Shown here piece after piece: positions 3,090 to 35,684 of a DNA stretch of 64,000 bases (positions within the stretch are counted from its first letter, which is position 1; the number at the start of each line of letters is the position of its first letter). This DNA comes from Lytechinus pictus (lineage: Eukaryota), in contig NC_087251.1 of the NCBI RefSeq assembly GCF_037042905.1, forward strand, positions 3,412,001 to 3,476,000, written 5' to 3'. The notes beneath the pieces were generated by a model. It worked only from the letters and a program-made list of their open reading frames with translations, was not told where the DNA came from and made no database searches. The position numbers and the translations under genes were made by a program.

Positions 3090-6000
3090 TCAAGCGTAGC
3101 TAATACTTGTATCGACTTCAAGATCCACACTGATAGGTTCATTCCCAAGATCTGGACCTTGGTCCTTCCTCCTAGCTGAGTAACTGGCCTGAAGCATTGA
3201 TGGAAGGGTGCGAACTGGATTAACAAAGTTATCACTATTAGCTACCTGGGAGAGTACATCAAGATCTTCAAGCTGACAGGCATCAGTCACCCGGAATTCA
3301 CCATCAAATTCAGAATTATTCTTGAACCATCGAAAAGATCTAAGAAAGTGAAGAAAAGGACAAAAGAATAGATTTAGTAGTCATAATTTTTGATAGACCC
3401 ATATCCTCAAAATGTTACATTATGTAAAAATGGAATTATTTATCTCCTAATTGAAAAACTGGAAGCTTGATACTTAAAATACCTTTTGAACTTGAGGAAT
3501 AATCATACAAAAAGTTACAAAAGAGATTAGCTTTGTTCTTTTTGTCTATATCACAGACTAATTAAACAGCCTACCATCTCCACTATACTTTATAATGACT
3601 TTATAGAAAATTCAATGAATAAGAGTCAATGTAAACACGCATCTTAAATGACAATATACTATAATCTAAATCTACTTTGCATGCTTATCTTTCAAACATA
3701 TCATATTTTCATAGAAAATAATTGATCTGATGACTAACTTCAGCATGAAACAGTATACTAAAATACACCATACAAAGATAATAATGATCCACTTGACTTA
3801 CCCCATGATATTACTGCTTTTTTTTCTTTTCATATATGTGAAGAAAGCTAGGACAAATATGACTGCTATGATGACTGTAACAGTGACTCCAACAATCACA
3901 GCTGGGGCTGGCCACAACAGCAAATTAAAAAGGGAAGAATTTGGATTTACACAGGAAATTCAATTACATGGAAAGACAAGGTGATAGTCAATAGCTACAA
4001 GCAGACTTGGCAGAGCTGTCCAATACATGTCAATAAGTCTTCAATCACAGTTGTTTAAAACACCTAATAATAACTTGACCTTAATTTGTGACACATATTT
4101 CTACAGGTAACTTAAATCAGGAACACTTTGGTAAGAAACACAGAAAACTATCTAGAATTAGCAATTTTCTACGTACAAATATGTCTTTTAAGGCTTGAAA
4201 AATGAACTTTAAGGCAACTTCTTTTACTTTAATTTAAATCTGATTTGAACTTATTTGATTATCAAGAATCTGTCAACATCTTTTTTATTATTCATATCAC
4301 CATGCCATGAACAAATCAAACAATCAGGAATGATTCATATTAATCTATTACTTGCTTATAACTTTGAGCTGCCATAAATGTATGTAAAGATTGATTTTGC
4401 ATATTAACAAAATCAAGAGATAAACACACCTGGGTGGTGGAGAATAGCCATGTTTTTTCCCTTAACTTTGCAGTCCATATAGCAGTCTCTATCTACTTGG
4501 TACCTGACACCATAGATCTCCAAGCTTTCAGTCTTCTTCACAAATCTAGTGTAGGCATCAAAGAGATCTGATGCCTGGTCAGTAGTTAATCCTGCAAGAC
4601 TGGCTTGGTATATAACACTTCCGTTCAAAAGTTTGTCATCTGGATATGAATTTAAATAAACTGTTCCAATTCAAATTATAATATGGAAACATGTAGTTCA
4701 AAATCATATTCATCTCAATCTTTTCAAGGTTACAGTGGTATTTTGTTTGGATACTTGTGAACCTTAATTATGATCAAATTATAAAAGTTGTAGAATACAA
4801 AACAATAGAAGGCCAGGCATCTATTTTTGTTACATTCATTCTAATATAAATTAATTCAGAACATTCAATGCAAGATATTATTTTTCACTAAACCATACAA
4901 AATCTCATCATTTATCTATTACATTATAAATAGCATACTTTTGTTTGTTTGAAAATATTCTAAGATTGGACACTTGCTATACTTGATAAGCACTATTTCC
5001 ACATCATTTCATTCTATATCATTTCAATTGTCAAATATGGAGAATCTATTTCCTAAATAAATGTCATCTTCCTGCTTCAATGGGGGTATTTCCTCTTCTC
5101 TGAATCAAGTACACACATTGTAATTAATATCACTGTAAAATGAAACATGCAGAGTAGATATTACAAATGATATTGTTTCAAATGGCATTTGTCTTCCTAT
5201 CCTGTTATGCAATAGAGATTGAGGCCATACCTTTTAGGTAATTTGAATTGAACCTGCACTTGCATTCTTCCTTGACACCTCTGACTACAGCATCCCTGAC
5301 TGAAGCCTTCCAGAGTAACCTTCCCTGCCACTGATCAAAGTCGGCATCCTCTAATCGTAGCTGTATCGTCTGTCCATACTCTACCTTGGGGCATGTATTA
5401 TCACTACCTGGTGTTGGACTGGAAAGCATGAATGCACTAGTGGTTCTTATATCACAGCAGGAACATCGTGAGATTGTTTCCTCTCCAGGAAGGTAGCTAA
5501 GACAAGACAAAGAGTTTGTAGATCAAAGTCAAATTCAAGAAATCACAAGAACATCAAGGTAAGTCTTTCAAATTAAGGTGATTACTATCATATCATCATT
5601 GCAAGTTCTGACATAATAGACAAGACAAATAATCACACAGAGGCATATGTTATAGTCTTTGAGAAAAGACACATCTAATGGCAGAATATACTTTGCTTAT
5701 TTTGTTAATTTATATGGTTTACTGATGGTTGGTCTAATATCACTTGGTCTAATCATCAGATGGGCTAACAACATTTGGGCTAAACCCAATTAGTCCCATT
5801 CTCTTTTGGTCTAATGACCACTTGGTCTAATAGCCAATTACTCTAATGTCCACTTGGTCTAATAGACAATTGGTCTAATGATCACTTGGTCTAATAGCCA
5901 ATTGGTCTAATGACCACTTGTTTAATAGCCAATTGGTCTAATGCCCCGTTGGTCTAATCGTCACTTGGTCTAATTTACATATGGTCTAATTGCCATTTCA

Positions 6001-9000
6001 TCTAATGTATTTTATTGTCACTAATTGGTCTAATTGATTTGGTCTAATAACAGTTCGTTCCATAGTCGGTTTCTAATACTAGTTGGTCTAATACCAGTTG
6101 ATCTAATCCTCACTTGGTCCATTATTTATGTGGTCTAATGAGCAGTTGGTCTAAAATGCAGTTGGTCTAATGTGCAGTTGGTCTAATTTCCATTTCGGCT
6201 AATCTCCACTTGGTCTAATTTCCACTTTGTCTAATTTCCAGATAGTCTAACATTCATTTCGTCTACATGCCACTTGGTCTAATTTGTAAAGTTTGGTGAC
6301 TCGTTTTCATTTTTCTGGTGAAATTATTTAAGTTACTTTCTGCGCGCCGGCTTCGAATCTTCACACACGCACCCCTCGATATTGGAGTACAGTCTGAGTG
6401 ACTGGACGTATATTTCCATTCCCAAATTTTGAAATTTTTTGAATTTTCAAAAAAGCCTTTGGGGCTGAAAAAAAATATTTGGGGATTAAAAAAAATTTGG
6501 GTATTTTTTGCTTATTTAAGGAGATTTTTTAGGTTTTGGTGAAAAACAATAAAATATGCAAATTTTCTGTAAAATAACACTAATATACGATCATAGAGGT
6601 GGAAAAAATAAGTTTTTATTTATCCACCTCTATGTATACGATCTACTGTAGATAGTTAACGGCTGGCTTAACCCAATCAGGGTTCCCAGCTTTTTAAGAA
6701 AACAAAAATCCCTGATTTTTCTCTGAAGTTTAAAAATTCCCTGAAAATTATTCAAACCCATTTTCAGGTTCCCATGTTTTCTAAGTTGTTGCGGTGAATA
6801 ACATGTATTATTATCTTTAAAGTCAAGTCCACCCCAGAAAATGTTGATATAAACTTAGAGAAAAATCTAACAAGCAAATCACTGAAAATTTCTTCAAAAT
6901 CTGATGTAAAATAAGAAAGTTATGAAATTTTAAAGTTTTTCTCAAAACAGTTATATGCACAACTCAGTAATATGCGAATGAGAGAGTCAATGATGTCAAT
7001 CACTCACTATTTCTTTTGTTTTTGATTGTTTGAATTGTACAATATTTCAATATTTACATAATTGACAGTAAAGTAATACTTAACTGAACCACATAATGTT
7101 AAAGAATGTTACTACCACATGTTCAGGGAGGAATAAAACTTGATTTCAAAGGGGAGAAAGTCAGAATACTACATATTTCATATAATAGAATAGAATACAA
7201 TACAATAGTGAGTAGGTGACATCATCAGTTTCCTCATTTGCATATACCAACCAGGATGAGCCTATAACTGCTGGGTGAAATTAAGCAAAATTTCAAAATG
7301 TAATAACTTTCTTATTTTACATCTGATTTTGATGAAATTTTCAGTGTTATGCTTGATGGATTTTTCTCTTTTTATTCAAATCATCTTTTTGTTGGAGTGG
7401 ACTTGTCCTTTACTTGTACTGTAGTTAAAGAGGCTGCACTAAAAAACCACCATAACCTGTCATTTAATGGATGTTGTTTTGATATGCAACAAAATATAAC
7501 AGAGTCTGACTATCGTGCTTTCGACTTTTAGGCCGATCAAAATTCTCTGATTTTGCCCTTATTTCAGGCATTTCCCCTGATTTGAATAATTTTAAAAATC
7601 AAACTCCCTGATTTTTTCCGACTGGAAATTTTTTTTTCCTGATTTCCCTAAAGGGCTGGGAACACTGTCAATCCATTTCAGGGAGGAGGCAAAGAAGTAG
7701 AATAAAAAAACAGAATGAGAAGATAAGACGAATGACTACTGTGGTTATAACTGATAAAGGTCTGCAAGCATAGACTATACTATGTTATTACATGTGATCA
7801 CTTCTATGAAGAAGGTAAGAATGAGTCATGGCTGCTACCAAGATGGTCGCAGTGATGTTCCTCCCTTTCATACGGTAAAAAAAATTGTAATTTGAATAAT
7901 GATTCCAGTAAAAAATAAGGCTAATGACCAATTTTTAGCTCGTGTGAAACCAAACCTGAACATGAATAAAATCACAAATGCTAATCACTATCACGAAATC
8001 AAATTCTACTCCAGAGGTGAATTTCACTTAAGTTTCTCTAAAATCACAGTTTTCGAGTGTGCGTGTGAAAGGTTCGATGATTCTAAAGATGAATTGCAAT
8101 CATCATTACAATGATTCAAGATTCACGTGTCGCAGCTAACCCAATAAACCTGTATAGTGATCAAACTATCCGCCCTTTCACAAGGTAAAAAAATTTGTAA
8201 TTTGAATTACCGGTATGATTCCAGTGAAAAATAAGTCCAATGACAAATTTTTAGCACGTGTGAAACCAAACTAGAATCACGAACGCTAATCACAATCACA
8301 AATTCAAACTCTACTCCAGAGGTGAATTCCAGTTAAGTTTCATACAAATTACGGTACAAATTTTACGTGTAAAAGGCTTGACCTCCAAAACATCTTTTGG
8401 GGGCGGAGCTTACGTGTCATTTCAGGCACTTCCGTAGATAATACAATTGTCATGCACTCATTGTACTGATGCAGTGCTATGATTGTCAAGTCACCGAGGA
8501 CACACACCACCTTTGCTTGGGAATTCGAATTCGAATCACAGTTTTCGAGTGAACTTGTGAAAGGTCCGATGATTCTGAAGACGAATTGCAATCATCAATA
8601 CAATGATGATTCAAGATTCACGTGTGAGAAGGCCCAGAATCTAACTGGTCTATTATTTGCCTCCAAACTAACTATTGAAATAACTTAACAAAATATTCAA
8701 AACACAATTACATGATCTAATGGCTTTGTAACATTTGGAATCCCCCAAACTGCATACTATTTGCTCATTTTCCGTCAAGTTCAAGTATCGTCTGTAATGG
8801 TACATAACAATGATTATAAAAGAGGCATAAACATTTTTACCAGATACGTAACCACACATTCAATTACATTATATTTTTGTTCCTTTCTTCATAATGAAAT
8901 TCTGATGAAACCTCGCCATTCGACCATTATAAGCTACAAAGTCCCCAACTTATTGTTAACCCAATACTTAGTATCTGTAAATGTGCATGCGATGATGTAA

Positions 9001-12000
9001 TGATTATGAGACTTTTGAGTATGATATAATTTTCATCATCTATACAGTGCGTATCAAAAAGAAGTTTACACTTTGAAAAAGCCCTGGGAATTAAAAAATA
9101 TACAACATGTGGGTAATTTTTTCACATATATTCTTGGGTTTGGCTCTCATCTATCCAATGAAAGTAGAAGTTATGACAGAATGTTACACTTGAGTAAGCA
9201 CTGTCCATTTTTGTAAAGCTCGCAGAAATCTGTTTGCGCAGAAATGCTCGTTTTCAAGCTATGTCAAAAATCAAACTTACCCTGCGAAACATTTCTCATA
9301 CATTTCCCTTGCACTTTTAACGGATTGACATAAAACGATTGACATAAAACGGATCATACATTCAAGCATTTTGTAACAATTTTGCCACCCAAATTGAACT
9401 TTCAACACTTAGTAAGCACAACCCTTACCCTTTTTGTGCCAGCTGGATCTGAGGACATAACTGAATCTGAACAAAAGTTAATTGCAGACATATCCAGCAT
9501 TTTTCGCTATGTTTTTATCATTTAAAGTGGGTTTACATTTCATTTTTAATGTAATACTTGTTTCTCCACACTTGACAATGATTAACAAAATAAAAATCAA
9601 GCCTAAGCCATTTCATGTAAATCGCAGCTCAGTGTAAGGCAAATATCGTCACGATGGCCTCGGTGTGTGGGGTAGTGAATGGGGCTCAATGCACTCTCTG
9701 AAGTGTTTTGGGCAAGGAAACAAGTTTAAAAAGGTAAAAGATTGTGCCCACCAGCCTTACCCCAGCTCTACCCCTCCGGATCATGGCGACATGTATTAAC
9801 TGATTCATGGTGTATTTATCTATTCATTACCATATTTCTTAATTCTAGATCAAATAAAAATTATACAAAGTGACGATTATCCCAACTGAGCATTAGACCA
9901 ATTGGATATTAGACCAATTGGATATTAGACCAATTGGATATTAGACCAAGTGTTCATTAGACCAATTGGATATTGGACTAAGTGGTCATTAGACCAAACA
10001 GTCATTAGATCATTTGAAAATTAGGCAAAATGAAAATTAGACCAAGTGGAAATTAGCCGAAGTGGAAATTAGACCAAGTGGTGTTAGACCAACTGGAAAT
10101 TCAACTAAATGGTTTCAGCCCAACTGCTCATTAGACGAATTGGATATTAGACCAAGTGGGAATTAGACGAATTGGATAATACACCAAGTGAGAATTAGCC
10201 CGACTCGTTATCAGCCCAAATGGAAATTACACAAATTGGATATTAGACCAAGTGGGAATTAGACGAATTGGATATTAGACCAAGTGGTCATTAGACCAAG
10301 TGGTCATTAGACCAATTGGATATTAGACTAAGTGGTCATTAGACCAAACAGTCATTAGACCATATGAAAATTAGGCAAAATGAAAATTAGATCAAGTGGA
10401 AATTAGACCAAGTGGTGTTAGACCAACTGGAAATTCAACTAAATGGTTTTAGCCCAACTGCTCATTAGACGAATTGGATATTAGACCAAGTGGGATGAAT
10501 TGGATAATAGACCAAGTGAGAATTAGCCCAACTGGTTAGTAGCCCAAACGGAAATTAGACAAATTGTATATTAGACCAAGTGGGAATTAGACAAATTGGA
10601 TATTAGACGAACAGGTTGTAGACGAAATGGGTTTAGATTGTGAAGTTGGATGAACTGATAAGTAGACCAAGTGGTATTAGACCATGCGATAATTCACCAT
10701 TTATACATAAAGTTTTATGGTAACTCTTCATTACAAAGTTTCATATCATAAATTGGCATCCGTAAAGTATAAATGTTATTTATAACCTGTGAAGGCTGTT
10801 TAGATCAGTAGTGCAAACTATAAGAGGATATCCTTAACTACAATAGTATCAGATTAAATTAATGAAAAGAGATTAACTGTACCATTACAATCTAAACTGT
10901 GCAGGTCATGATTAATCTGGAGAAAACCGAATGTATCTGAACTAAAAATCATGAATAAACAACTCCTTGGATAACCATGTTAAATGTATACTTGTAAAGA
11001 AAAGTGACAATTCAACGTTTTCCATTCACAAAAATAAAATTTATTAACAGATGAAATATGCATATGGGGTATAAAAGTTAACATCCCCAAAATATGTAAT
11101 ATCTTTAATTAAAATAAAATAACTTGAGGGGTGTTTGAGATGAAGCAATACTTGAGTGAAGAGTTTATGAAGTTTCAGTCTCACCTTGATTCTTCCTCAA
11201 TGACTTTCCCATCTGATGTAAGCTCACTCAATGCCTTGCTCTCAGGTCTATTATGTCCTCTGTAAACCAAAACATCCACTATCCTGGCCATTGGAACCAT
11301 AGATCCCACTCTGAAATCCACAGGTTTACCTCTACAGAGAGCTACAGCGCCCCCTACTGTCTTCAAAACTCCATCAGTTACAGAAGGAAGTGTAACCTTT
11401 GGTAGCGGTACCAGACTATCAGTTCCGATGACCAAGAAACCTTTTTCATCCAGTGACTGTCCAGACAAGTCGACCACGTAAGACACCTTAGCAGAATCAT
11501 CATCTTCCATCACAATCAACACTGAATATCTGTCAAGAGTGATATTTGCTGGTCCTTTCAGCTCAATGAATTCCTTGCCACCGGTCAATGGATCAAATGG
11601 GTTAATCTCATTGATAATTACTACATCAGGACTTGGAGTAACTGGAGGATTTGATGAACAGAAGTTTGGTTGCTTAGGTGATGGTTGTAGTAATTTGTAA
11701 GCAGATGAAAGCAGAGGTTGACAGCATTTGCAGCGGCTTATGCTCTCTGATCCTTGGTAGAAGTTACTACCGACTGTTACCTGAGCTTGACCTAAAAGGG
11801 ATAAACGCAATGGATATCTAGTTAAACATTCAGTTTCTACAACAAGAATATCTTATGAGAATTTTTGATTCAACCCAGGCCTGTGGTGAAAATTAGAAAT
11901 AAACTATTTGCTCAGTATCAATTCCATTATAATAATTTATAAAATAAGCCCTTGACCAATTTCATGTTTATAAAAAAAAAGAAAAAGGGCTATTCAGGCC

Positions 12001-15000
12001 TCACATGATTTGCATTCGATGCTTTAGAACCTATATGTCAAATTTCTCTAATAATATTGATGTCAAGCAAATTGTAGAAAATAACCTATTCAAGTAAAAT
12101 ATACTGATCATATAACCTTGTAAGAGCTGTCTTATCAATGTCATGCTTTGACGATTCATATCTCCATATACCAGAGCATCAAGAAGACCTAATGATGTAG
12201 CAGGCATCCCTGCTTTATAATCATGGTGATCTCCTCTATAGAGAGCAATAGCATTGGCTCCATTCCTTAAGAAGCTCTGACCCAGATCACCAACGAGCAT
12301 GTCACCGTTTAATGAGAGCTGAGATGTGACTATTAGAAGGTATCCATTCCTTTGGATAAAATCAAAAGAAAATAAGAGAATTAGCAATCTTATCAATGGA
12401 AAAAAATGTAATTGTTTAGTAATTAATTTCCTCTAGATTTTTTTTATGTACATAAACAATACATGGATATAACATTCTAAGATCATGTAGGAGTTGATAA
12501 AGTTCTTGAGTTTGAGGATGTACTAGGCCAACATTGTTCCGATATCTTCAGTAGATATGAATGTACTACTAATGATCATATGAACAATACTAAGAATAAC
12601 ACTTAAACAGGTTCAAGTACGTGGTTAATAATGAGTGCATATGCAAGTCACATGTTTAGTCTTCAAATATCAAGGACATCGTTGGATTTGAAGAAACTTT
12701 CAACTGCTATTTCATATTACAGACTCGTTAAAAAAACTTATTCTCAATTTTACAATTTGTAATGGTAGTGGCATTGCAGGTTTTCACAATGTAATTCATA
12801 AGACGCTACTTGTCCCACATTGTAAATGTCCCCGAGTATGCTGCATCAGTACTAACACATTCGCACAGGTGCATTTTTTGTAAATTATCATATTTACCAA
12901 ATAAAGCAAATCTAATGAGAAGTACGTTAGATTGTGCACACTAAGGGGACAGTCAAAGCACCTATATTGGCTTAAATTTAACCCAGCTACCATTAAGTCT
13001 TATAAGCTTTCAACTTTGAAATGCAACTTTCAATAAAGACGTTACCTCCTCATTCATTATTCACAGAGCAAACTAAATGAAGGCCAGTCTCACTAAGTAC
13101 ATACCTGAATATTTCAATATCAAATAATAATTACTGCCAAAGTCTCCTTAACACATTTTTTATCCAATTAAATAGAAGAGTTTAAATGAATATATACTGA
13201 CTCATCAGTCTTCTGTCCTTGTAAGGGAATGGTCTTATATGCCCTTCCTCCATTGATCCCTGTGAAGAGTACCAAGACTAAGGAATCCAATGGTGTTGAC
13301 CCTTGACCTCCATCATAAAGTTCAATGAACTCTTGTGATCCACCATCTTGATCTTCCAAGCAAACTTCATTTATAACCACATCAGGAGTAGTGCAGTTGT
13401 TGATTTGCTCTGAAAAGTTAACATGGGCAAAAATTGGGCTAGTATTCTTTGCAAAGACAGTAAGTCATATTTTCTGTCTTCATTGTTTGTCTAAATAAAA
13501 ATGTTTCATCCTAGAATTTATATATTTTATTACACTTGGGCTTTAACACACAAAGTATTGATGGTTGATTATCTTAGCAGCCCTTAAAGAGCACAAATGT
13601 GGTAAAATATTCACATTTGATATGATTTTAACATAAATATATACATAAGGACCTTATCTCATAAAGATAAACCTAAATTACATATCAGAGATGTATCATT
13701 GCAACAAACCTGGTGTAGGCATTGTTGATATAAATGCAGACATGGAAATCGTCCGGTTTGATAGGCACCTTGAAGCAGCACTCCCTGTCTCCATCATGAC
13801 CTGGAGCTGACCAGGAGCTAGAGACGTCATAAGGGAGCTATCAGCTACCAAGGATGATCCATATATGACAGCATCCTGGATGTTCTCTAGGATAAGGATG
13901 GATCCTCTAGGTATGTCCTCTGGGGATGCTCTGTACAGGACTACAGCATCTGATCCTTCCTGTAGGATGTCATCAGGGATGACTATATCAGGTAGAGGTG
14001 TCACACTGGTTGTACCAATTAACAGGAAACCATCAGAGTTAGTGCTATAAATACAAGCAGATTTCATGTAATTGTTATGATAAACACTTAACGAATTAAA
14101 GAGTTAAACGATAAATAAATTATTGATAAGATAAAACAAGCATTACAAAAATAAACCTTCCCCAATTCAAATATTTACAATTATCAATGACTCAATGAAA
14201 TAACAGATAATGGAAATGTGAATACTATGAATGAGAGAAAATAAGATATTTTGTACCAAGTAATAACCTCCTAGTGAATTCATATGAAACATTGTAACAC
14301 AAAAATATTTGCACAACTGAAGTTAAATAATAATTCAATTTTTTTTTTGCAAACTGCACTTTGATACTTTCTGGATAAACACACATTGTGGTCATTTCAA
14401 CACTGAGCACACTGATAAAGAGCAATTAACTCCAATATACTTCCAATGCATATACCTTACATGTATGTAAACACACAAACATGGTGACAGATTATCACTG
14501 TGTCACTACGAGTTATTAAGTAACATTTGTACTTCATTGAAAATGCAGCATTGAAAGAATTATTTGAGCTTGATCATCTTGCAAATTAACAACCAATACA
14601 CCAAACACTCCTACACATTTAGACACACATATGCCTCTCACTTTTAAACTAAGATGTTTTACTCACAATCTATTAGACAGATCTAATTCATAATATGACC
14701 GATCTTCATTGCTGCCATCATAGAATACAAGTAAGAATCCATTCAGTAATATATGACCCACTCCATGGTCATATAGTTCAATGTACTTTCCATGATGATC
14801 TACTGTATCTCCAGCAGCATATACTTCATTGATAATAAGAGCTGGGGAAGAAAAACATTGCATACAAAAATTTAGATTTCGTATTTAGATAAAGAGTACA
14901 CATACAAAGCAGATATAATATAAATTACAATTTTCTTTTAAAAATGAGTAAAGCTACTGAACAATAAAACAATGTTAGTACTGATGTTGATGATGATGAA

Positions 15001-18000
15001 AATAAGCACCACACAATTATTATAAAATCATATATTATCACTATTATTGTAACAGCATTATCAATAATAAAATCCCAATCAACACAGGCAAATCTTAATA
15101 ATAACTTTTATAAATTTGGATTTGAAATTAATCATCCAGAGTAAATAAACTGAATCCTCTATACTTATGCTTTACTTATATTTCGATTTACATATTTTAC
15201 TCTGACTACAAATTATATTGTAACATCCCCTTTCTGAACTATATTTCTATAGTTTACTAGATACTAGTAGATGGCACATTATAAATTCTGCTTTTCTTAT
15301 CATTCTCAGGATACTTGTGATTTGTGCTGTCATTACATGACATCACTTGTCCATTCCAAAAGTTTATCTTCAAAAGCTTAGTTCTCTGACTAAAACTGAA
15401 CAGACATGATAGCCAACATAAATTTTACAACATTCTCAAAATAGATTTGATATGTATACAGACAGTACATACTGCTATCAAAGTCTACGAATGCAGTGCA
15501 GTTGTTGGCTCCACCCATGGTTGGGACAGTGACGGCATAAACTGTTGGGTCACGTTTCTGAGTTCCATGACAACGACTCAAACTTTCATCATACTGTAAG
15601 TGAGTTCGGTCTTCTTTGATTGTGAAGTATCCTGGAGGCAAAACAAAACAGAGGAACATGACAGAAGAAATAGAAATTACAAAATGCGAAAATAATTTAA
15701 AATTACATAAAATATGATGCTGAGAGTAAAGTTGATCCTGTGCTTTTTTGTTTTAATGGTCAACTATTAAGAAACACATGAAAAATTGTTGAGGTGCTCA
15801 TACAAACTGTCTGCACCACAATATATTTTTTTTGAGAGAATGTAATAGATATTACCTCTATTTGGAAATAGTTTCTAATTTGAACATAATTAATTATGTA
15901 TCATAATGACAAAGAACCTTTAACATGCATATCTGTCAAATATTGAAACACTTAGATATATATTTCTTTTCAAATCATACTCTATTTTTTCTTCAATGCA
16001 GTTTTTAAAGTCACTATAATTCATTTTCATTTTCTTCCACTTCCCATGTACCTTCCATTCATTACTTACATATGAAATGCAGAGAATGGTATGCATCTCT
16101 TTAATATAATATTCTTTGCAACTGTTCAGTTTACACAATCTATCAAGTCATTCAGAATATTTTCAAGACATCATTCTAAATTGTTTCACATACATTTACA
16201 ACTAGTTCTAAACAGTCAGAGAAAGAGAAAATGAGTTATTTTCATACCTGGCACCAAAACATCAACAAGTCTTCTACCTTCCTTATTATTAGTAGAATAT
16301 ACCACAGCATCTATCAGACCAGCTGATGTCACACTTGTACCAAATGGAAATGCACCAACATGAGCTCGGTAAATGGCGATAGCATCAGGCCCATTTTGAA
16401 GGAAGCCTCTAGTAGCAGTATGAACCAGCAAGTCAGCATCTAACAAAGTTTGAGATTAATAAGTATGAAAAATTATAATATTGTAAAAATTAGATTAGAA
16501 AAGAATACATGGTAAAGAAGAAAGCGAAAGAGTTTATATGGTTTAATCTACAGGTGGCAGCATGAAATTATTAAAAGTACAGTGTAAATTTGTGGAAAAA
16601 ATTATACAACATCTTAGCAAATATCAAAAATGAAATTATTAAAAGCCATCAATCTCACGGCTGAAAATACATGCAAATACATAAGAAAACTATTTCACTA
16701 AATACATTTCCAAGAAAATATTGAGCTCTCATTTCAATCTGATGCATGAAAAAGATGAAAACAAAAAATCATCAACCTAATGATAAAATATTGGGATAGG
16801 ACAAAGCAGTTTTTTATTCACCATATAATTCAAGAAAATAAACCTATAACATTAACAATACTTCTCAGCATCTAATAAACGACTTTGATTCTAAATGTAT
16901 TTCCAGGTACACATAAACATATTACTATTTTCTGCAAACGGATGACTAAATAATAATTGTAAACACAAACATATATTCTTACTATTGCCCATGAGATGTG
17001 AGCCAATTACAAAGAAGCCATGAGAATTAGTTTGATATCCATCAAGTCCCAGAGCTAGATACGACCTGCCAATATTACTAGCTCCATTATACAGCACCAG
17101 GGTAGTGTAATTCAGTGAAACGTTGCCCCGCCCTCCATCATAAAGTTCAATGAACTCTAATCCATCCATGCCGGGTAGATCAACGTTGATCTCATTAATG
17201 ATGATATCAGTAATGAAAGATGGACAGAGATTAAGACCATCGGGAGAAGGGTTGCACAAAATGAATGGTGACATCATGAAACGGTCCAGGGAGAAGCATC
17301 GACAAAGAGATGAGGAACCTCCTAACATGTCTGATGGTAGCTACATCATTTAAGATATATAAAACAGATTAATAATTGTTTTGCAATTTTAAAGCATTAG
17401 AATTATAATTTGTAAGTATTGAATAATACCATCTCTAAATCATTAACTTCAATAACTATAGGAGTATGAAGTTTAACAACTTATAAAATGGAAAAGAATA
17501 ATGCCTGTTATCACCATCATTGTCAGAACAATGTTTAGTACTTATTATTAAGCAAGAAAGTTCAATTCCATATAAGGTGTTATAATCTTTAAATCATTCT
17601 TAACCACAAAAATAATGAATCATTCGGCTTTTAAATTGTACAAAATTTGACTTTCTCATGTTTGGTTTATTTAAACACAACATATTCTAAAGCTACATAT
17701 CCAAGATCAATTGTATGTCTTACAGGCAGTGAATTAGGTGTGAGAGTTTGACTTGATCTTGTAGATGATCCATTGGTCCAATTACTGTACACAATAGAAT
17801 CCATTAACCCCTCTGTTACTAGTTCAGATCCAATGACTAAAGTTACATTTCCTTGTGCCCTGTACAAGGAAATTGCTCCATAGTTTGTCTTCATGAATCC
17901 TGTTTTAAAAATGGAATAACAATTTTGAAGTTTACATTCATGAATCATGGCTACAGATATATATCAAGGATGGAATGTTAGTCAGGTTTCATCACTGTTT

Positions 18001-21000
18001 AGAATCAACAGGCTTTCCCACATATCTTTCCTGTATCTTTTGAAAAGAAATACAAGCATACATTCAATCATCTCTCTTTTAGAATCTGAAGTCATCTTGC
18101 AATTATTGAGGATGCAATATATGGTATGACACATTTAAACTGGTTAACTCCTGCAAAATCTCATTCCCAAAAACATAACACAAGTAAATTAATTAAAATA
18201 CTTACCATCATTGAGTATATAATGAGGGTTTGGATCTACCACTGCTTCTCCCATGACAAGATAACCAGCTTGATTGGTTTGATATCCAGTAAGAGGGATG
18301 GTCAGATAGGCAATATCACCTTCACCATAAAGCACTACCACAAAGTCATCTAAAATATTTAAAAAAAAAATCATATTTGAAATATACCAATCACAATCAA
18401 TACTGATAAACCTTCTTAACACAAATATCATATATATATTTTTTGTGATCCATCAATTCTAAGTACTAGTAGTTCTTAAGCAATAACATGAGAATATGTC
18501 ACGTTTAAAATACAGAGAGATACAACAGAAATAACTGTTGTTGCCTAATTACATAAAATTACATATCAGTAGTATGTCAGATTAGATACTTACCCAGAAG
18601 AGTGAAGCCATTTCCTAGATCCCATATTTCAATAAATTGCTTGCCTTCTATCAGACTCATTTCATTGATGACTAACACAATATCCTCTGAAGCAGGGCAT
18701 TTATTGACAGCCTTAGGAGACACATTAGCTTTCTCATAAACAATATTTCCACTGGAGTTTCTACATCTGTTGATAGACATATCCATGTTTCCTGTTGTAT
18801 TCTCAAAGGAATATTCTACTTTCTGGATGAGGTATTGGTTGTTAGGAATGGTTCCCTCCATATACATAAACTTCTTGCCCTGGTAGATGGCTATAGCATC
18901 AGGTCCATCAAGTACCCAGCCTACTGGCTGACGGAACCGTGGGACATCAGGGCGAGGGACTGAAAGGCTTCTATAGCCAATCAGCAAGAGGCCGTTCACA
19001 TCTGTCTGGTATCCGTTGAGAGTGAGGGACCGGTGTACTGTCCCATTTTCCCCATTGATGCTCACCTGAAGTAAAAGGAAAGTGAACCATAAATGTTCCA
19101 GCAAAATTTAATTCATCACAATGCATGTTTAGACAATGCCACATAATCAATAAATGTAGGCCTAAATAATTTAGGTGTTATACATTTAGGACAAAATCAA
19201 ATTTTTCATCTCGCACATTTGTTTATTGACAGTGCAAATGTGCAATTAAAAAGGGAACAAAATTTTCAAACATATGGGGAATATCAAATGATCTCCTGCA
19301 TAGCTATTTTCATAGATAAAAGACAAAATGAGACCATTCTGATCAGAACTTCAAAAATAGTGATAAAATTCCTTATTTCAAACTAAACACATTTCTCTCA
19401 CTTTCTACTCATATTCAAGAAAGATATTTCCAATGGGGACTTCCCTCTATTGAGAATAAGTATCAAATGAGACTAGGAAGTTATTACTGATTATGAAAAA
19501 AGTGAAAGTATCACATTCTTCTTACCAAAGATACATTATTGATGGGGAAATGTGGTATTCCAAGACTGGAAAGCTCTACATACTCCCCTAATTCTATAAT
19601 GGGACTGTCTGTATTGATCTCATTAATCACAATAGGTATCTTCGGGCAGGAGTTTGCCATTGCTGGTGTAGGGGTGGAGGTTGCAAAGGCTAGTTGTTGT
19701 TTTGGTTTGGGTGAGTAACAGCGCTGTATAGAATTTAAACCTGAAGAGCAATATATGGAAAGGAAAACAGATAAATGTAAAAGTTAACATCAAGATCAGA
19801 AATGATTACAGTCATTTTCGGGTCTATTACATGGAGATATACCACAAACTTTTCTATTATCTATTTAACAAAAAAAAGGAAATTCTCATCTTAACCTATT
19901 GGAGACTGATATGCAGGATGAAATCTATGGAAAACATGTGTTATAGCACAATAGCATTAATAGTTTGAGCCGAGTATGCAGAAAATCTATGGAAAACATG
20001 TGTTATAGCACAATAGCATTAATAGTTTGAGCCGAGTATGCAGAAAATCTATGGAAAGCATGTGTTATAGCACAATAGCATTAACAGTTTTAGCTGAGTA
20101 TGCAAAACTTAATAACTGCAACTGCAAGAATGATTTCATATATCTTCTGAATTGAATTGATTTTATAAAATTGTCATAAATTCATGAGTTTGTACATTAT
20201 CATTATTCTTTCCCTGAAAACTTAAGCAATCACAAAACTGTACAAGATCATTTGTCAACTAATTTTGTTTAACAAATGATGAACTTTTTTTTAATACTAA
20301 GGATGTTACTGCTATTTTACCAGCAATAGTGAATGTTGACTTACCAGCCAACACCTGATTGTTCATTATAATAAGAGGTTGAGAAATGTCCAAAGACCCG
20401 AGTAATGAGAAATCATCTGTACCATTCCTTCCAAACGTCACAGCATCTAGAACCTTTTCTAATGTAACTGAAACCAGTTGAACATGGCCTGCATCACTCT
20501 GAGAAGAAAAGATAAACCATGATGAAAGCAATACAAACTTACCAGCCAACACCTGATTGTTCATTGTAAGAGGTTGCAGGACTTGCAGGACTTGTTCAAA
20601 AGAACATTGTATCCATTGATGTTTACAATTTAAAGTTTCAAATTTATTTTGGTTGATTTTAGACCCAAGTTGAAGATCCAATAATCAGGGGTGTGAGTGG
20701 TCACAAATAAAAAGATCTGACAAAAGCTGAAACTTGTAGAAAAAGTCTGAAGTTGAAAGAGCTCCCATACTTTTTGTACAGAGGAAAGCCAAAAATAAGC
20801 TGAAATTAAGCTGAAAATCAAAACGAAAAAAATCTGAACGCTCACACCCCTGAATAATGATGAGCCATATTTCCTGGGCACAATGGTGGGCAAGTCCCAA
20901 GAGAATATCAATAAAATTAAAAACTAGATGAATTCCTCACTGCGTTGTCAAAAATTTAGGCCTCTAGCATTGACTGATGTGAAATATATTGAACACCTCA

Positions 21001-24000
21001 CTTCTAAAATTATAAACTTTCATGATTTCACTAGGTCCTATAAATTCATAAACCAAGTATACTTTTGCTTTATTTATTAGATAGAGGTTATTTATTCATA
21101 CAAACCATGTCCTCTATGACCTAGACCTTATGAACCTTAAATGGCATATCACCAATAAACCTGATGAATTCAATATAATGCTCTCACTAAGTAAATCAAA
21201 ATGCTCTTCATGGCTACTATAAAATATATCTTACTTGTATCATAAGAGGTGATGTGTGGTAAAATGTTAGCTCCTCTGTACTATTAGAACCATTGATGAC
21301 AATGATTGGTAGAACACTGGGAGATGGAGACTCAATGATGAAATATCCCTCAGAATTGGTTTTGAAGTCATCCAGGCTAAACCTAAGGTAATAGCTACTT
21401 TTACAATGAAGGGAATAACAAGGAAAAGGTTCATTTCTGGGGATTTAGTTTAAGCTATTTCTCATATATACAACAGAAGTTCATATAGCAAAAGTAAAAG
21501 TCAATATAATGATGATACACATATTCAACTTCATACTAGAATATATGTCAAAGATGGTCCCATAAGTAGTAGAGGAATCAGCTAAAATCATACTGGTAAT
21601 TTTAAAGGATGGTTAATAATAATACCGGAGTATAATTTTTAAGTGCACAACACCTGGTGTAGTTTTCTCTGCATTTTATAATTATAAATCAACAAAATAT
21701 AAATATAAATTACATAAATATAACATTTGGTTTTCATTGTTTAAAAACCTCATATCTCAATGTTTCCAACTAATAGTCGAAGCTGTTTCATTGTATTATC
21801 ACTTAGTTAGTATTTGGTGTAAAAGCTTCATGGGTACTGGGAGACACAACCCCATTAACGGGTAACTGAAATCTTCATGGTGAAATATTATTCTAAAGGG
21901 TATACAGAATAAAATTGAAGATCAATGTACTACCAAGATTTAACAATGGATTTCTTTAACCAAGTTTTCTATCAAATGAGTATCTCTATTCATAATAGTA
22001 TCTTATATCATACCCCCACAATTCCAAGCCCCATCTCACCTTTCACCTTTGGAGTTTACAGTGTACCAATCAACCAGGATATTGAACAGATCAACTCCTC
22101 CTAGTCCACCATCATAGATTTCTATGAAGCCACCACCCGATGTGTCATTGTCAAACTTGACTTCACTGATCCTAAGCTGTTTATGATACATCCTGATGGT
22201 TTCTGTGAATGTCCTGTTGTCTATGAAGCAGTCAATGTTAATAGCACCAGGGCTCACCGGAGCGAGACCAAAGGAAGAATGGTTGCGCTGAAGACAGCAG
22301 TAGCATCTGCTGATGGACTGGTCTACTGATGACGATGCGGTTGATGGAAGTTCATTGAGATGATGTTGATTTGGCATTAACAAGTGAAGGAGGTTTAGAT
22401 CTGGCCTGTCATCTAATGAAGATGAGAACTTACCAATTAGTATATTGAGGAATTACATATTTCAGAGATAACTGATGAAAGAGAACAAATATACAACTTT
22501 CAATTATAAAACGGATAAAACTAATTTAGATCAATCAAGAATATACCTTACTAATATGTTATAAAGAAGAGATACACTGATCTGCTACATGAATGCATGT
22601 AGGATGTACCATATCTACTTAATATAAAAGGTGAAAAGGGCAATGATGCAACAATGAACTTTAAAAAAAAAGAAATACAATCAGATAATTTGGCAAAATA
22701 GATCCAGCAGTGCCAGAGTACTTTAGGGCACATCAAAGATTGGTGGTCCAAACTAATGTGGATTCATAATAGCTAGCCACAGCATTCATTTGTGTACTCA
22801 GAATGTTCCAGTGCCACAGAGAAGATATACGTATGTAAGTGAAGAAGATTGACATTAAAAATAACTGAAATTTTACTTACCTGTTCCATACACCACAGCA
22901 TCTACCAGATTAAGGTCAGATGCCTGTCTGCCTCTGTAGTACTTGGCAGGACCAACATGGATCGCCACAGCATCAGGTCCCTCCTCTAAAAAAGAGCCAT
23001 CTATCATATCTGCAACATAATCTACATTGGTCCTTTCACTTGGTCCTATCACAAAAAATCCTGCTTCATCTGTGGAGTATCCAGTCAAATCCATGACCCT
23101 GAAGGCACTGTTGCTTGTGTCGTCATAAAGCGCTACCACCAGACCATCCAAAGCCTGTGACCCTAAACCGCCATCATATATCTCTATAAACTGGTTGGTC
23201 CCATTTGCAAGGACATTGATTTCATTGATTACAATAGGAGGTGGTGTACAAAGGTTGATTGCCTTCGGAGTCACATCACCTAAAGAAAAGCTTTTATGCA
23301 TAAAACGATCCCATCCTTTACACCGACTCCATGATTGGTTTGTGGTACTTACTGAAACTGGCTCCTGACCCGGTGTAAGGATATCTATCAGATCTTGATC
23401 CTGAGGGAATGTTACCTCACCAAACAAAACAACATCAAGGAGAGCATTCTTTGAAACAGGAGAACCAGCTACAAGTATGTTGGAAAGCTCAGAAAGGTGT
23501 ATGGCAATGGCATTGCAACCTACCAACTGAGGTAGGTTTGGAATCACATAATCTGGAGCAGGTTCCATATCTGCACTTCCAATCAGGAATAAGCCATTCT
23601 CATTAGTGAAATGTCCATTTAGTGACAGAGGATCTCCAAATACTGCAAGACTTCTTCCACTGTACAGAGCAATGAGTATGTTGTCCAAAGCCACGTTTCC
23701 AAGCCCACCATCAAATAGTTCAACAAAGGGTTGAGACTGGTCAACTTTAAATTCGTTTATTACAATATATGGCAATGCTTCAGGATTGATTGGAGGAAAA
23801 CTAGGAAGAGCCTGTGTTGGAATGCTGGGCTCTAATCTTGTGCAATCATTTACTCTGCCAGGGGTGAGATGTGCTAGACTAAATTGTGATGCATCCAAGC
23901 GATCATATCCAGAACATCGACTGATTGACTCATCTTCTGAGATAAAGCCAGAATCTTCATGGATCGTCATCTGTCCAGGTGTGAGAACATCTAATAATTC

Positions 24001-24999
24001 TTGGTCATACCTTCCTCTCTTATCGTACACAACTGCATCAACAAGCGATGAATTTGTGACATTGCTGCCAGCTGATAAGTGACTATTGTTTCCATTGTAC
24101 AAAGCAACAGCAGCTACACCATTTTGCAATATGTTCACATCAAGAGCATGTCCTATCACTTTTTGAGGTCTTGGTACTACATTTTCTGAACCAATAAGAA
24201 AATATCCTAAAGGTTCGATGGAAAGATTTGCCAGGGCAAGGACACCATACATTCTATCAGTTGTGCCACTGTATAACACTAGGGTGTATTCATCCAGTGA
24301 TACTGAAACATTAGCTTTGTTATACAGCTCTACATACTCTGTGGTATCTTCTCCTCGATTGAGAGCATTCAGTTCATTTATGATAATTGGTGAAGGAACT
24401 ATTCTATTCTTACAGTCATTCTTCTCTTTAGGTGTAATGAGAGCAAACAAGAACTCAGTATCATTGCCATCTAAACATCTATTAATTGATAAGTTCACCT
24501 GCTGAAGATAAAGCTGATCTTGGATGATAACCTTGGCAATGTTTAAGTTCTCTAGCAAAACTGAATCATTAGAAGATGCCGAAGTTGAAAAGACAAGAGC
24601 ATCTTCCAGATACCCTGTTGTTGGTTCCATTCCAATTTGAATGGTTCCAGCCTCTCCATCATACAATGCAATAGCTCCAATATATCCATCTCCATGGGCA
24701 GCATCTGTCCACTCCAAATCAACATCTGAAAAAAGATCACTTGAACCAACAGTATAATATCCTCCTGTTGGTAATACAACTTCTGGAAGTCTTTTCACTG
24801 CGATCCCAGAGGATGAATTGAATATTACCAGGGAAAAGTTTGATATTGAAAAGTTACTGGTGCCATCATTGTAGAGTTCAACATACAAACTGTTGTTTGA
24901 TTTATGGCTCAGCCATACTTCATTGATGACAATATCACAATAACATGCAGATGCACTGGTCAGGAGTAGGATCAAGAAGGTATACATGATGTAGCTCAT
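3090..24999 (-). CDS. Large type I transmembrane protein (~2300 aa): signal peptide, 11 LTD-like repeats, SEA-like domain, TM helix, cytoplasmic tail; 20 coding exons
   Basis: Exons in transcript order, all GT-AG and phase-compatible: 22881-24999, 22040-22412, 21235-21394, 20345-20498, 19526-19740, 18594-19065, 18206-18349, 17724-17899, 16983-17340, 16248-16439, 15473-15631, 14667-14841, 13710-14044, 13202-13409, 12117-12349, 11185-11791, 5231-5496, 4430-4639, 3802-3901 (or 3907), 3090-3339. They sum to 6906 nt (2301 aa + stop). N-terminus MSYIMYTFLILLLTSASAC is signal-like. Repeat consensus: IVINE...EFIELYDGG.G...LD...LVLY.G...Y....L.G..T...GFF.IG...LQNGPDA.ALY...L.DAVVY...LTPGQ...S.SRC...PTPG..N.C. 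TM: AVIVGVTVTVIIAVIFVLAFFTY followed by MKRKK. The donor at 17724 is the least certain junction. Confidence 0.88.
3802..3907 (-). CDS. Transmembrane exon of the LTD-repeat protein (not in the ORF track)
   Basis: Minus-strand translation (AP)AVIVGVTVTVIIAVIFVLAFFTYMKRKKSSNIMG. Donor GG|GTAAGT; phases match both neighbouring exons. Confidence 0.88.
4430..5496 (-). CDS. Two exons encoding the end of repeat 11 and a SEA-like juxtamembrane domain
   Basis: Spliced sequence ...TIQLRLEDADFDQWQGRLLWKASVRDAVVRGVKEECKCRFNSNYLK/DDKLLNGSVIYQASLAGLTTDQASDLFDAYTRFVKKTESLEIYGVRYQVD. Its beta-alpha-beta-GSVI-beta-alpha pattern and position just before the TM fit SEA domains (inference). Confidence 0.6.
6592..6634. 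mobile_element. 43-bp TIR-only transposon remnant with a perfect 8-bp TSD
   Basis: TATACGAT|CATAGAGGTGGA...TCCACCTCTATG|TATACGAT. Confidence 0.8.
6678..7667. mobile_element. hAT-like MITE containing a Kolobok-like MITE
   Basis: TIR CAGGGTTCCCAGC...GCTGGGAACACTG with repeated subterminal TTCCCTGA motifs. No clear TSD. Confidence 0.55.
6821..7409. mobile_element. TTAA-flanked Kolobok-like MITE, copy 1
   Basis: TTAA AG(G)TCAAGTCCACCCC...GGAGTGGACTTGTCCT with long imperfect TIRs. Same family as 33601-34202 and 61193-62616. Confidence 0.75.
7860..8636. repeat. Two head-to-tail copies of a Harbinger-like MITE
   Basis: CCCTTTCA(T/C)A.GGTAAAAAAA..TGTAATTTGAAT starts at ~7863 and ~8173. Both copies end in GATTCAAGATTCACGTGT; the second terminates CGTGTGAGAAGGCCC. 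Confidence 0.55.
9043..9745 (+). mobile_element. Tc1/mariner MITE fragment (left end only)
   Basis: TA|CAGTGCGTATCAAAAAGAAGTTTACACTTTG; no matching right TIR found. Confidence 0.45.
19917..20105. repeat. Three tandem 62-bp units (intronic)
   Basis: AAATCTATGGAAAACATGTGTTATAGCACAATAGCATTAATAGTTTGAGCCGAGTATGCAGA x3. Confidence 0.9.
22881..24999 (-). CDS. First coding exon of the LTD-repeat membrane protein (signal peptide, repeats 1-3, most of repeat 4)
   Basis: ORF 22873..24999 (708 aa) with four INE motifs. Acceptor TTCTTCCTCAG upstream (exon starts 25049); donor CAG|GTAAGT at 22880. Confidence 0.92.
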
Positions 25000-34202: not shown

Positions 34203-35004
34203 TTGATTTTTTTAAATCTGAACACATTGTGGCTTTATTTAAATGCGTGGTTCATTTCAAAGAACTTTAAAAGGGTGTGCTTTTCCGAAGACTAGTTCTA
34301 AGGTTTATTCACAACGCCCAAAATTAGTGAAAGATTGAAATGGTATTTTCATTGTATAGGGATACACTGGAAATAATTTTTATCGACAATGAAGTGGATA
34401 TATTGAGACATTTAAAGGATTAAATCATCAAAATTTAAATTGAACTTCTTTCTTTTTCTAGTCATAATCTTTCGACCAAAATTTTAATTAATGAATAATT
34501 TTCAAAAGCTCTGCTAGGGAATCACTCTTTATCTACAAATGCAAAACATGTAGAATATTTGAGCGACATTTTTCGTTGATTTCTACTTCTTGATATTTTT
34601 TAGGTTAATTATTACCAGAGTCGATAATTCTCTCTTTAGTCACAGACCACGTATAGGCTTTTAAAACTGTTCATGAGGATGATTCTGAGCGAGCCTATAT
34701 TGGAAGCATGAAAATGTATGCACTTTGACGGTCTTGGAACAAAATTCAGCTGAAATACCACACGAGTGTTGCACTTATAATATCATTGAATTACGATGGG
34801 TTTTTATGAATGTCATGGGTGCCAGAAACAATGTAGATTTCATTATAATTTTGATAAACCAATATTTATACCAAACAATTTGCCAATGAATATCTAGATG
34901 GAATGGGATTTAAGTTTATCCATGAAATCACATCACAGTGTATTTGGTATATATCTTTATCATTGAAATAAAGTATGATTTTACATGGTTATTTCAATTC
35001 TTAG

Positions 35005-35430
35005 GAGGAAGAGAAGTAGTAGAAGAGGAAAATATAAACAAGTGGAGGAGGAAGAGGAAAAAGTATAAGTATAAGAAAAGGAAGGAGAAGAGGAAAGAGA
35101 AGAAGAAGAAGAAGAAAAAGAAGACAAAGAAGAAGAAGAAGAAGAGGAAGAGGAAGAGAAAGAGGAAAGAGAAGAAGAAAAAGGAGAAGAAAAAGAGGAA
35201 GAGAAAGAGGAAAGAGAAGAAGAAAAAGGAGAAGAAAAAGAGGAAGAGAAAGAGGAAAGAGAAGAAAAAGAGGAAGAGAAAGAGGAAAGAGAAGAAAAAG
35301 AGGAAGAGAAAGAGGAAAGAGAAGAAAAAAAGGGAGAGAAAGAGGTAGGAGAAGAAAAAAGGAAGAGAAAGAGGAAAAAGAAGAAATAGTAGAAGAGGAA
35401 GAAGATTAAGTTAGAGAAATGAGAAAAAAG
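35005..35430. repeat. Polypurine (GAA/GAG/AAA) low-complexity tract abutting the truncated PLE 5' end
   Basis: AAGAGGAAGAGAAAGAGGAAAGAGAAGAAA units. Confidence 0.9.
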
Positions 35431-35684
35431 AGTTCTTTTTAGATGCACCCCCTTCTGATCCCGAGCCCTTCTACAAGAAAAGCACATGGATTCCACCTAA
35501 GAATAGAGTTCCTTCCCTTGAAACTTACATCCAAGCTGTCTCATCCCAAGTTCGCTCCACAGATACCCTCGACACCAGAGCACATGACAACCTTCCTCGA
35601 GAAGAACGCCAGGCTCTCTCATCACTCAAAAACAGGTCCGACATCATCATCAAGCCTGCAGACAAAGGATCAGCCGTCGTTGTT

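Follow-up and report, generated by a model that had tools for sequence, protein, structure and literature searches.

An eleven-module LTD array on a probable SEA-like membrane anchor: a sea urchin gene from an unnamed animal family with bacterial counterparts

Introduction

What use might an animal cell have for a receptor made almost wholly of lamin tail domain (LTD) modules, when the nearest non-animal relatives of these modules stand in tandem in bacterial proteins annotated as extracellular nucleases? The question is raised by a gene within 64,000 nucleotides of DNA from the sea urchin Lytechinus pictus (NCBI RefSeq assembly GCF_037042905.1, contig NC_087251.1, positions 3,412,001 to 3,476,000 of the forward strand). 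This whole stretch is referred to below as the window, and exon and element coordinates are counted from its first letter. It is AT-rich animal DNA from an assembly of 812 Mb. An earlier note, made from the letters alone, had seen in it 20 phase-compatible exons of a cell-surface protein with 11 repeats. The gene is single-copy and transcribed, and it encodes a type I membrane glycoprotein of 2303 amino acids, comprising a signal peptide, 11 LTD modules, a probable SEA-like juxtamembrane domain, one membrane helix and a cytoplasmic tail. Confidence in this anatomy, and in the family assignment of the protein, is high.

One gene of 20 exons

A minus-strand open reading frame (ORF) of 711 codons, at 22873-25008, has a hydrophobic leader and four repeat starts of the form I-x-I-N-E. 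For the full model the L. variegatus orthologue (P0002, 2305 amino acids, encoded by LOC121419367 and given the database name "uncharacterized") was placed on the window, with splice sites picked by script. The model runs on the minus strand from 24999 to 3090 in 20 exons, with GT..AG at 19/19 introns and a frame that is open throughout; the coding sequence extends from 24999 to 3093 and the stop codon occupies 3092-3090. Its product is identical to P0002 at 2230/2303 residues (96.8%), the sole indel being of 2 amino acids. The exon count and coordinates proposed earlier were thus confirmed, and the 11 heptads then listed as repeat starts (IVINEVW to VIINEIN) recur identically in the spliced protein, where the repeats start at residues 23, 205, 412, 589, 786, 972, 1138, 1317, 1509, 1688 and 1882.

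Genome matches to exon 1 are confined to the gene itself, with no second copy. Introns mostly ignore module borders, modules 1-4 lying almost wholly inside one exon of 2119 nucleotides; among the 19 introns, those at borders follow exon 11 (a module border) and exon 18 (the border between juxtamembrane domain and helix). The exons are as follows.

Exon 1, amino acids 1-707: 22881..24999, minus strand; start codon, signal peptide (encoded by 24999-24940), all of modules 1-3 and the greater part of module 4; Pfam LTD 89.8 bits
Exon 2, amino acids 707-831: 22040..22412, minus strand; end of module 4, start of module 5; transcript pieces end at 22412 (X1 record 7) and 22040 (X7 record 16)
Exon 3, amino acids 831-884: 21235..21394, minus strand; module 5; carries the 2-residue indel relative to P0002
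Exon 4, amino acids 885-936: 20345..20498, minus strand; module 5; gene model
Exon 5, amino acids 936-1007: 19526..19740, minus strand; end of module 5, start of module 6; gene model
Exon 6, amino acids 1008-1165: 18594..19065, minus strand; module 6, start of module 7; 18594-19063 is covered by X2 record 12, whose flanks map elsewhere
Exon 7, amino acids 1165-1213: 18206..18349, minus strand; module 7; acceptor set by eye and script
Exon 8, amino acids 1213-1271: 17724..17899, minus strand; module 7; gene model
Exon 9, amino acids 1272-1391: 16983..17340, minus strand; end of module 7, start of module 8; X1 record 5 is exactly 16983-17340
Exon 10, amino acids 1391-1455: 16248..16439, minus strand; module 8; X1 record 4 ends at 16247
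Exon 11, amino acids 1455-1508: 15473..15631, minus strand; end of module 8; gene model
Exon 12, amino acids 1508-1566: 14667..14841, minus strand; module 9; spliced to exon 13 in X7 record 14
Exon 13, amino acids 1566-1678: 13710..14044, minus strand; module 9; X7 record 14, X2 record 11
Exon 14, amino acids 1678-1747: 13202..13409, minus strand; end of module 9, start of module 10; spliced to exon 15 in X2 record 10
Exon 15, amino acids 1747-1825: 12117..12349, minus strand; module 10; X2 record 10
Exon 16, amino acids 1825-2027: 11185..11791, minus strand; end of module 10, most of module 11; spliced to exon 17 (X2 record 9, X7 record 13)
Exon 17, amino acids 2027-2116: 5231..5496, minus strand; end of module 11 and, from about 5393, the first half of the SEA-like domain; spliced to exons 16 and 18
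Exon 18, amino acids 2116-2186: 4430..4639, minus strand; remaining half of the SEA-like domain, with Gly-Ser-Val encoded at 4622-4614
Exon 19, amino acids 2186-2221: 3802..3907, minus strand; transmembrane helix (plus the last codon of exon 18), hydrophobic mean up to 3.08, a helix in the model; in transcripts implied only
Exon 20, amino acids 2221-2303 and stop codon (3092-3090): 3090..3339, minus strand; cytoplasmic tail, F-V-N-P-V-R at 3227-3210; X7 record 13 and pieces of X1 and X2 on 3000-3340

Transcripts

Contigs from three public runs (X1, X2 and X7) skip introns at the modelled borders. Exons 18, 17 and 16 are joined in X2 record 9 and X7 record 13, exons 18 and 17 in X1 record 2, exons 15 and 14 in X2 record 10, and exons 13 and 12 in X7 record 14. 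X7 record 13 also links exon 20 to this 18-17-16 group, with 102 unlisted letters where exon 19, of 106 nucleotides, is expected. Single contig pieces end at most 1-2 bases from the model borders of exons 2, 6, 9, 10 and 13, and junctions with both sides listed amount to 4/19. A search of runs with exon 1 yielded no matching run recorded as RNA, with the matched contigs proving to be spliced; given that exon 1 is without a second genomic copy, the joined contigs are transcripts and not a processed copy. The sole run recorded as raw RNA reads, X21, has almost nothing on the exons. The collinear model and the contigs joining exons at modelled borders speak for one gene rather than several.

Two intronic stretches, 5668-10336 (intron 16) and about 20680-20830 (intron 3), have depths of thousands in all four runs and many rearranged joints. 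These are highly repeated elements and probably transposons.

The LTD modules

After the signal peptide the ectodomain consists of 11 modules of ~180 amino acids each, with short linkers. These are LTD modules by Pfam and by fold, in agreement with the initial view of the repeats as LTD-like. With the Pfam LTD model (PF00932), whose gathering cut-off is 34.3 bits, exon 1 reaches 89.8 bits and P0002 135.2, and modules 1 and 2 pass even when taken singly, at 36.3 and 37.2 bits. Pairwise identity among the 11 is 17-37%. A profile built from repeats 2-4, through which module 3 is tied in, recovers the other eight at E values of 1.6e-18 to 6.3e-50, and a module profile of 185 positions finds 11/11 modules at full length, each covering at least 80% of it. 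The unit is longer than the Pfam model (~180 vs ~110 amino acids): beyond the core are a short helix and two strands, and the C-terminal extension has the endings S-x-S-R-C and T-P-G-x-x-N-x-C, with a conserved pair of cysteines. Every module has an acidic net charge (-2 to -16), to an ectodomain total of -118.

An AlphaFold2 model of module 2, made with 20 relatives, has a predicted local distance difference test score (pLDDT) of 82.8 and a predicted template modelling score of 0.80. On searching the PDB with it by Foldseek, the immunoglobulin-type (Ig) folds of lamin A/C, B1 and B2 lead (E 1e-3 to 1e-1, probability ~1.0), so that the beta-sandwich of the model is lamin-like, with no row at E <= 1e-3. 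In VIA-align, lamin B1 matches the core only (Z 9.1, 106 residues), whereas the bacterial protein BT_1938 (PDB 4q1z) matches the whole module (Z 14.0, 178 residues, root mean square deviation 3.0), and all others are at or below 5.7. Sequence searches of the PDB with exon 1 and with a profile of 10 orthologues gave nothing meaningful, and module 2 retrieved from the ESM Atlas only unnamed clusters of ~180 amino acids, one of them bacterial and 32% LTD.

LTD was the only Pfam family found in the urchin protein and seven animal relatives; no catalytic domain, be it a nuclease (EEP, Endonuclease_1 or similar) or another, was found in them, which bears out the earlier remark that a catalytic nuclease domain is absent. 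Nor did Pfam find an immune-type signalling domain in the urchin protein. Genome-wide, the Pfam LTD profile picks up the LTD-array gene and two lamin-type loci only, L002 (C5:19896800-19898200) and L003 (C9:20665500-20666900), which are exon fragments of 114 and 115 codons with partial domains of ~75 amino acids, too short and divergent to root the module tree described below. An RNase H-like ORF lies near the lamin-type fragment in L003.

Relatives and module history

The protein is a member, on sequence comparison, of an unnamed family (LOC121419367 / si:ch211-183d21.1) with collinear signal peptide, long-LTD array, juxtamembrane domain and single helix. That uncharacterized animal homologues exist had been stated beforehand; they do, and all are unnamed. 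Long relatives are present in all five echinoderm classes, in the hemichordate Ptychodera and in the amphioxus Branchiostoma, and the urchin protein is collinear with nine other echinoderm and hemichordate proteins. Short ones, of ~850-1100 amino acids, occur in teleosts, bichirs, coelacanth, frogs, squamates and kiwi, many being named after zebrafish si:ch211-183d21.1. A transcript of the sponge Oscarella pearsei has a Frizzled-type domain, six modules and a helix. Protostome, cnidarian and mammalian members were not seen among the matches listed (66, 73 and the best 120 of 929), all from word-seeded lists that are not evidence of absence. Module counts are as follows.

Echinoids: 11
Crinoid (Antedon): 11
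Holothurian: 11
Starfish: 9-10
Ptychodera: 12
Amphioxus: 8-9
Vertebrates: 4

Starfish P0011, P0012 and P0020 are without a counterpart of module 1, 0-2% of the module-1 residues of P0002 being matched.

In a FastTree tree of 107 modules, modules at corresponding positions cluster across phyla. Urchin module 6 falls with crinoid 6, amphioxus 4 and hemichordate 7 (support 99), urchin module 8 falls with crinoid 8 and hemichordate 9 (support 96), and the last modules likewise cluster. Modules 2, 4 and 8 are the most conserved of the urchin array. Such grouping indicates that the array was already built in the deuterostome ancestor. The proposal that a module was amplified into a long receptor stands as regards the array itself, with the amendment that amplification is old, as module orthology from urchin to crinoid, hemichordate and amphioxus attests, and was not an urchin event.

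What of the bacterial side? Four modules stand in tandem in P0038, a metagenomic 'predicted extracellular nuclease', and three of them align end to end with urchin module 2 at 31-34% identity over 186-203 columns, both cysteines included. The 185-position profile finds full-length modules in all bacterial proteins scanned; named sources include Chloroflexota, Acidobacteriota and Flavobacteriia, and many of the proteins are annotated as extracellular nucleases. With sorting into animal and bacterial by sequence names, and 41 modules of unnamed source excluded, the cysteine pair is present in 371/391 animal modules vs 358/532 bacterial ones. Local BLAST identity between bacterial modules and the sponge protein is 41-51% over about one module. 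This whole-unit identity to P0038, together with the higher structural score of BT_1938 than of lamin B1, upholds the description of the module as bacterial-type.

An IQ-TREE analysis (106 rows, one long-branched bacterial row having been excluded) places 67 animal modules, sponge included, and 39 bacterial ones on opposite sides of a single branch, with a support of 99 in the Shimodaira-Hasegawa-like approximate likelihood ratio test (SH-aLRT), and FastTree had placed 39/40 bacterial rows together. So clean a split gives no sign of recent or repeated exchange. With an animal-bacterial identity of 31-51%, the module qualifies as a candidate for ancient transfer from one domain of life to another, the tree being unrooted as to direction.

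The juxtamembrane domain, helix and tail

With a Kyte-Doolittle mean above 1.8 over 19 residues as the definition, only two hydrophobic segments are present, residues 7-25 (signal peptide) and 2181-2213 (membrane helix, more narrowly 2186-2210), from which type I topology follows; the signal peptide, helix and tail of the earlier description are thereby retained. The protein has 36 N-x-S/T sequons and 40 cysteines.

The ~115 residues that separate module 11 from the helix are recognised by no Pfam family. The AlphaFold2 model, made on the P0002 counterpart (two residues differ from those of the window) with 25 relatives, has a pLDDT of 89.3 and the order strand-helix-strand-strand-helix-strand-strand, then the membrane helix. 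Among its top twelve VIA-align matches are the membrane-proximal domain of SorCS2 (Z 8.0), three SEA domains of MUC16 (7.9, 7.7 and 7.5), the SEA region of TMPRSS6 (7.4), Gpr126 (6.9), IA-2 (6.7) and a mouse protease SEA domain (6.5); the SEA domains of MUC16, TMPRSS6, Gpr126 and the mouse protease align over ~90-102 residues. Cleaving SEA domains cut between the G and the S of G-S-V-V-V, in the β2-β3 hairpin. Gly-Ser-Val is invariant in 10/10 aligned echinoderm and hemichordate sequences (G2124-S2125-V2126 of P0002), and in the model it too is in the β2-β3 hairpin, Gly61-Ser62 lying between strands 53-59 and 64-71. Four cysteines of the domain are conserved, as C-x-C and C-x-x-x-C.

Among 1.84 billion representatives the domain has 25 relatives at E <= 0.001, the recognisable ones being of the same family or fragments of it. 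Ten of the 25 were scanned with Pfam: three have an LTD signal, five no family and none SEA. P0246 and P0247, the two weakest, carry unrelated Pfam families and were probably matched by chance. In the ESM Atlas, the juxtamembrane domain of P0020 gave no usable match. Of the earlier label 'SEA', what survives is the predicted fold, the position and G-S-V; what does not is a Pfam SEA match, none having been found in eight orthologues or in the ten relatives. 'SEA-like' is accordingly the term used here for a domain with, on the model, a probable SEA fold and a probable cleavage site, outside the Pfam family. The chances that it cleaves itself are put at even.

The tail, of 93 amino acids, is conserved in blocks, G-E-F-R-V-T and L-x-D-L-D-V-L followed by F-x-N-P-x-Y. 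N-P-x-Y is present in 6/10 aligned sequences (Diadema, three starfish, sea cucumber and Ptychodera) and in amphioxus P0017 and P0071. The motif tyrosine appears to have been lost in the Lytechinus/S. purpuratus group of urchins. Vertebrate tails (P0072-P0122) are short, with a conserved N-Y-x-x-I(-E) and not N-P-x-Y. Motifs of both the N-P-x-Y and the Y-x-x-I type are sorting or adaptor signals.

What the protein may do

The best explanation as a whole is an LTD-array membrane protein with the action of a self-cleaved, sheddable receptor or adhesin, and it is given slightly better than an even chance. The protein would enter the endoplasmic reticulum and be N-glycosylated at its sequons, and one disulphide would pin each module. 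The SEA-like domain would then cut itself between Gly2122 and Ser2123, by analogy with the behaviour of SEA domains, leaving a rod of 11 acidic modules displayed at the cell surface and clipped non-covalently to a short membrane stub. Such a rod may be an adhesion or ligand-capture arm that holds an extracellular partner and that, under load, could be pulled off or shed as in SEA-anchored surface glycoproteins. Retrieval might proceed through the sorting or adaptor motif of the tail, F-x-N-P-x-Y in most relatives and degenerate in the Lytechinus urchin. The sheddable adhesion or receptor mechanism by itself, argued from analogy, is tentative and falls well short of an even chance.

Several results weigh against this reading. 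At the level of the gene, exon read depth is low in all four runs, and module 3 alone has no Pfam LTD match at E <= 10. At the level of the anchor, the Pfam SEA model (PF01390) gives no match at E <= 0.1 in the eight orthologues, Foldseek finds nothing in the PDB at E <= 1e-3 for the juxtamembrane model, and Z scores of 7-8 are 'middling' for VIA, with unrelated ferredoxin-like folds (Cas6 and RNA recognition motifs) reaching 6-7. Vertebrate orthologues retain the domain but not G-S-V, which implies that cleavage is not essential to the function of the family. In the tail of the Lytechinus urchin and of S. purpuratus the motif is F-V-N-P-V-R (3210-3227, minus strand here), lacking the tyrosine. 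Finally, the literature yielded no functional or localisation study of the animal family, the sole entry being the zebrafish gene in one table: there si:ch211-183d21.1 is one of the 50 transcripts that show the strongest depletion when mpeg1-positive microglia are compared with the other cells of regenerating retina (log2 fold change -10.3), with photoreceptor and progenitor genes around it in the same depleted list (PMC6423051). Two other literature leads were of a different kind. A catshark sperm proteome lists an 'LTD domain-containing' protein whose domain is the unrelated SMP-LTD, and an octopus mucus entry came with no detail.

The alternative that survives best, though still rated unlikely, is a structural rod for cell-cell or cell-matrix adhesion, stiffened by calcium in the manner of cadherins and protocadherins, with the SEA-like domain a rigid pedestal and not a cleavage device. 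Eleven beta-sandwich modules in tandem, every one of them acidic, would suit it, as would the keeping of module identities through deuterostome history, which is expected if modules make different contacts, and the retention by vertebrate members of the pedestal domain without G-S-V. Echinoid C-termini are S-x-A, which could presumably serve as a PDZ ligand. What a mere pedestal leaves unexplained is the invariance of G-S-V in all ten ambulacrarian orthologues.

Less probable again, and by a clear step, is a pattern-recognition or scavenger receptor whose LTD array binds extracellular DNA, a microbial surface or a biofilm polymer, the tail driving uptake. The company kept by the bacterial modules, in annotated extracellular nucleases, is a point for it, and endocytic-type motifs are present in relatives (N-P-x-Y, and Y-x-x-I in vertebrates). 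Work on single bacterial proteins is relevant here. In Shewanella ExeM, deletion of the LTD slowed DNA degradation in vitro, but clearance of DNA in vivo did not need it, and the same study describes the role of bacterial LTDs as not established (PMC6085458). For BT_1938, structure prediction and gene neighbourhood have led to the proposal of a surface lid aiding substrate binding by a TonB-dependent outer-membrane transporter (bioRxiv 10.1101/2023.03.17.533168). The charge of the array counts the other way: with all 11 modules net acidic, DNA binding by them is disfavoured on sequence grounds, the ectodomain being a poor fit to a polyanion unless cations bridge. The lack of an immune-type signalling domain in Pfam is a further objection, and slow, position-specific conservation of modules across phyla is unlike what a fast-evolving immune receptor would be expected to display.

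A gene-prediction artefact (exons from at least two genes, or a decaying pseudogene) could be entertained from the low read depth and the small number of fully listed junctions, yet has next to no chance against a frame that stays open across 20 canonically spliced exons, the recurrence of this architecture and length in five echinoderm classes and a hemichordate, and contigs linking exons 20/18/17/16, 15/14 and 13/12.

To return to the sheddable receptor or adhesin, it can be extended into a broader history, which taken entire is improbable. A bacterial long-LTD cassette would have been gained by an early animal and turned into a receptor kept from sponges to birds, each module having its own partner; at the exposed epithelia of marine invertebrates it might cleave itself and, in a calcium-dependent way, sense or adhere to a polymer of microbial or matrix origin, with a retinal role in fish and possible loss in mammals. 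Mammalian loss, if true, could explain the absence of study. Both domain types are known, and no paper was found that describes their combination, a bacterial-type LTD array on a SEA-like anchor. Across deuterostomes the family shows module-by-module conservation; it is single-copy here and is present in the tractable Lytechinus and zebrafish. As LTD function is established only in lamins, a receptor that is almost all LTD offers a clean system in which to find the ligand of the module.

Other elements in the window

Outside the gene, retroelements are in evidence. An ORF of 686 codons at 35415-37475 (plus strand), in a GC-rich patch, matches reverse transcriptase (E 2.2e-8) and, just below the cut-off, a GIY-YIG nuclease motif (E 2.6e-4), a pairing typical of Penelope-like retroelements. 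Just upstream of it, 34926-35496 is a long simple repeat that reads as runs of Lys/Arg/Glu or Ser/Phe/Leu in several frames. Two adjacent ORFs at 44714-47708 (plus strand), with endonuclease/exonuclease/phosphatase and reverse transcriptase (E 2.5e-30) matches, constitute a retrotransposon of the long interspersed nuclear element (LINE) type. ORFs at 51999-52379 and 58805-59164 (both minus strand; 126 and 119 codons) resemble exons of another gene. Pfam gave no match for these two, and a resemblance to protein kinases is an unconfirmed impression only.

Comparison with known systems

The closest system is the family itself. L. variegatus LOC121419367 has the same 11 modules at the identity given above, and the S. 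purpuratus orthologue is LOC587541. Other echinoderm, hemichordate and amphioxus relatives have the same module order, SEA-like domain, helix and tail. Vertebrate si:ch211-183d21.1 has kept the helix, the pedestal domain and modules of the long type; it differs in having four modules, no G-S-V and a short N-Y-x-x-I tail.

Bacterial tandem long-LTD proteins share the module in detail: the length of ~180 amino acids, the I-N-E start, the E-F-I-E-L strand, the S-x-x-R-C and T-P-G-x-x-N-x-C endings and the cysteine pair. However, they combine it with PKD, Big_5, CopC, endonuclease/exonuclease/phosphatase or type IX secretion domains, none of which is in the urchin protein, and the latter, unlike them, has a eukaryotic signal peptide, a SEA-like domain and a membrane helix. 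BT_1938 of Bacteroides thetaiotaomicron, a DUF4876 lipoprotein, is the best structural match to the whole module at 14% identity, though Pfam places it elsewhere; it is the surface-exposed lipoprotein partner of a TonB-dependent transporter and not a repeat array. The Ig-fold tail of lamins, founding member of Pfam LTD, shares the core beta-sandwich (module residues 1-130). Lamins are only 11-16% identical to the module, are without the C-terminal extension and the cysteine pair, and are nuclear in location.

For the anchor, the parallel is with SEA-anchored proteins, e.g. MUC1/MUC16, matriptase-type proteases, ADGRG6, IA-2 and dystroglycan, where a juxtamembrane alpha/beta sandwich, with a strand order that the predicted urchin domain appears to share, precedes a single-pass helix, and where cleavage falls in the β2-β3 hairpin, the place of G-S-V in the urchin model. 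The urchin protein departs from this set in having no Pfam SEA sequence match and no mucin-type Pro/Thr/Ser repeats. With transmembrane mucins in particular, whose ectodomains have long Pro/Thr/Ser repeats in place of its 11 folded modules, the likeness is in the way the anchor may act and not in membership of the class.

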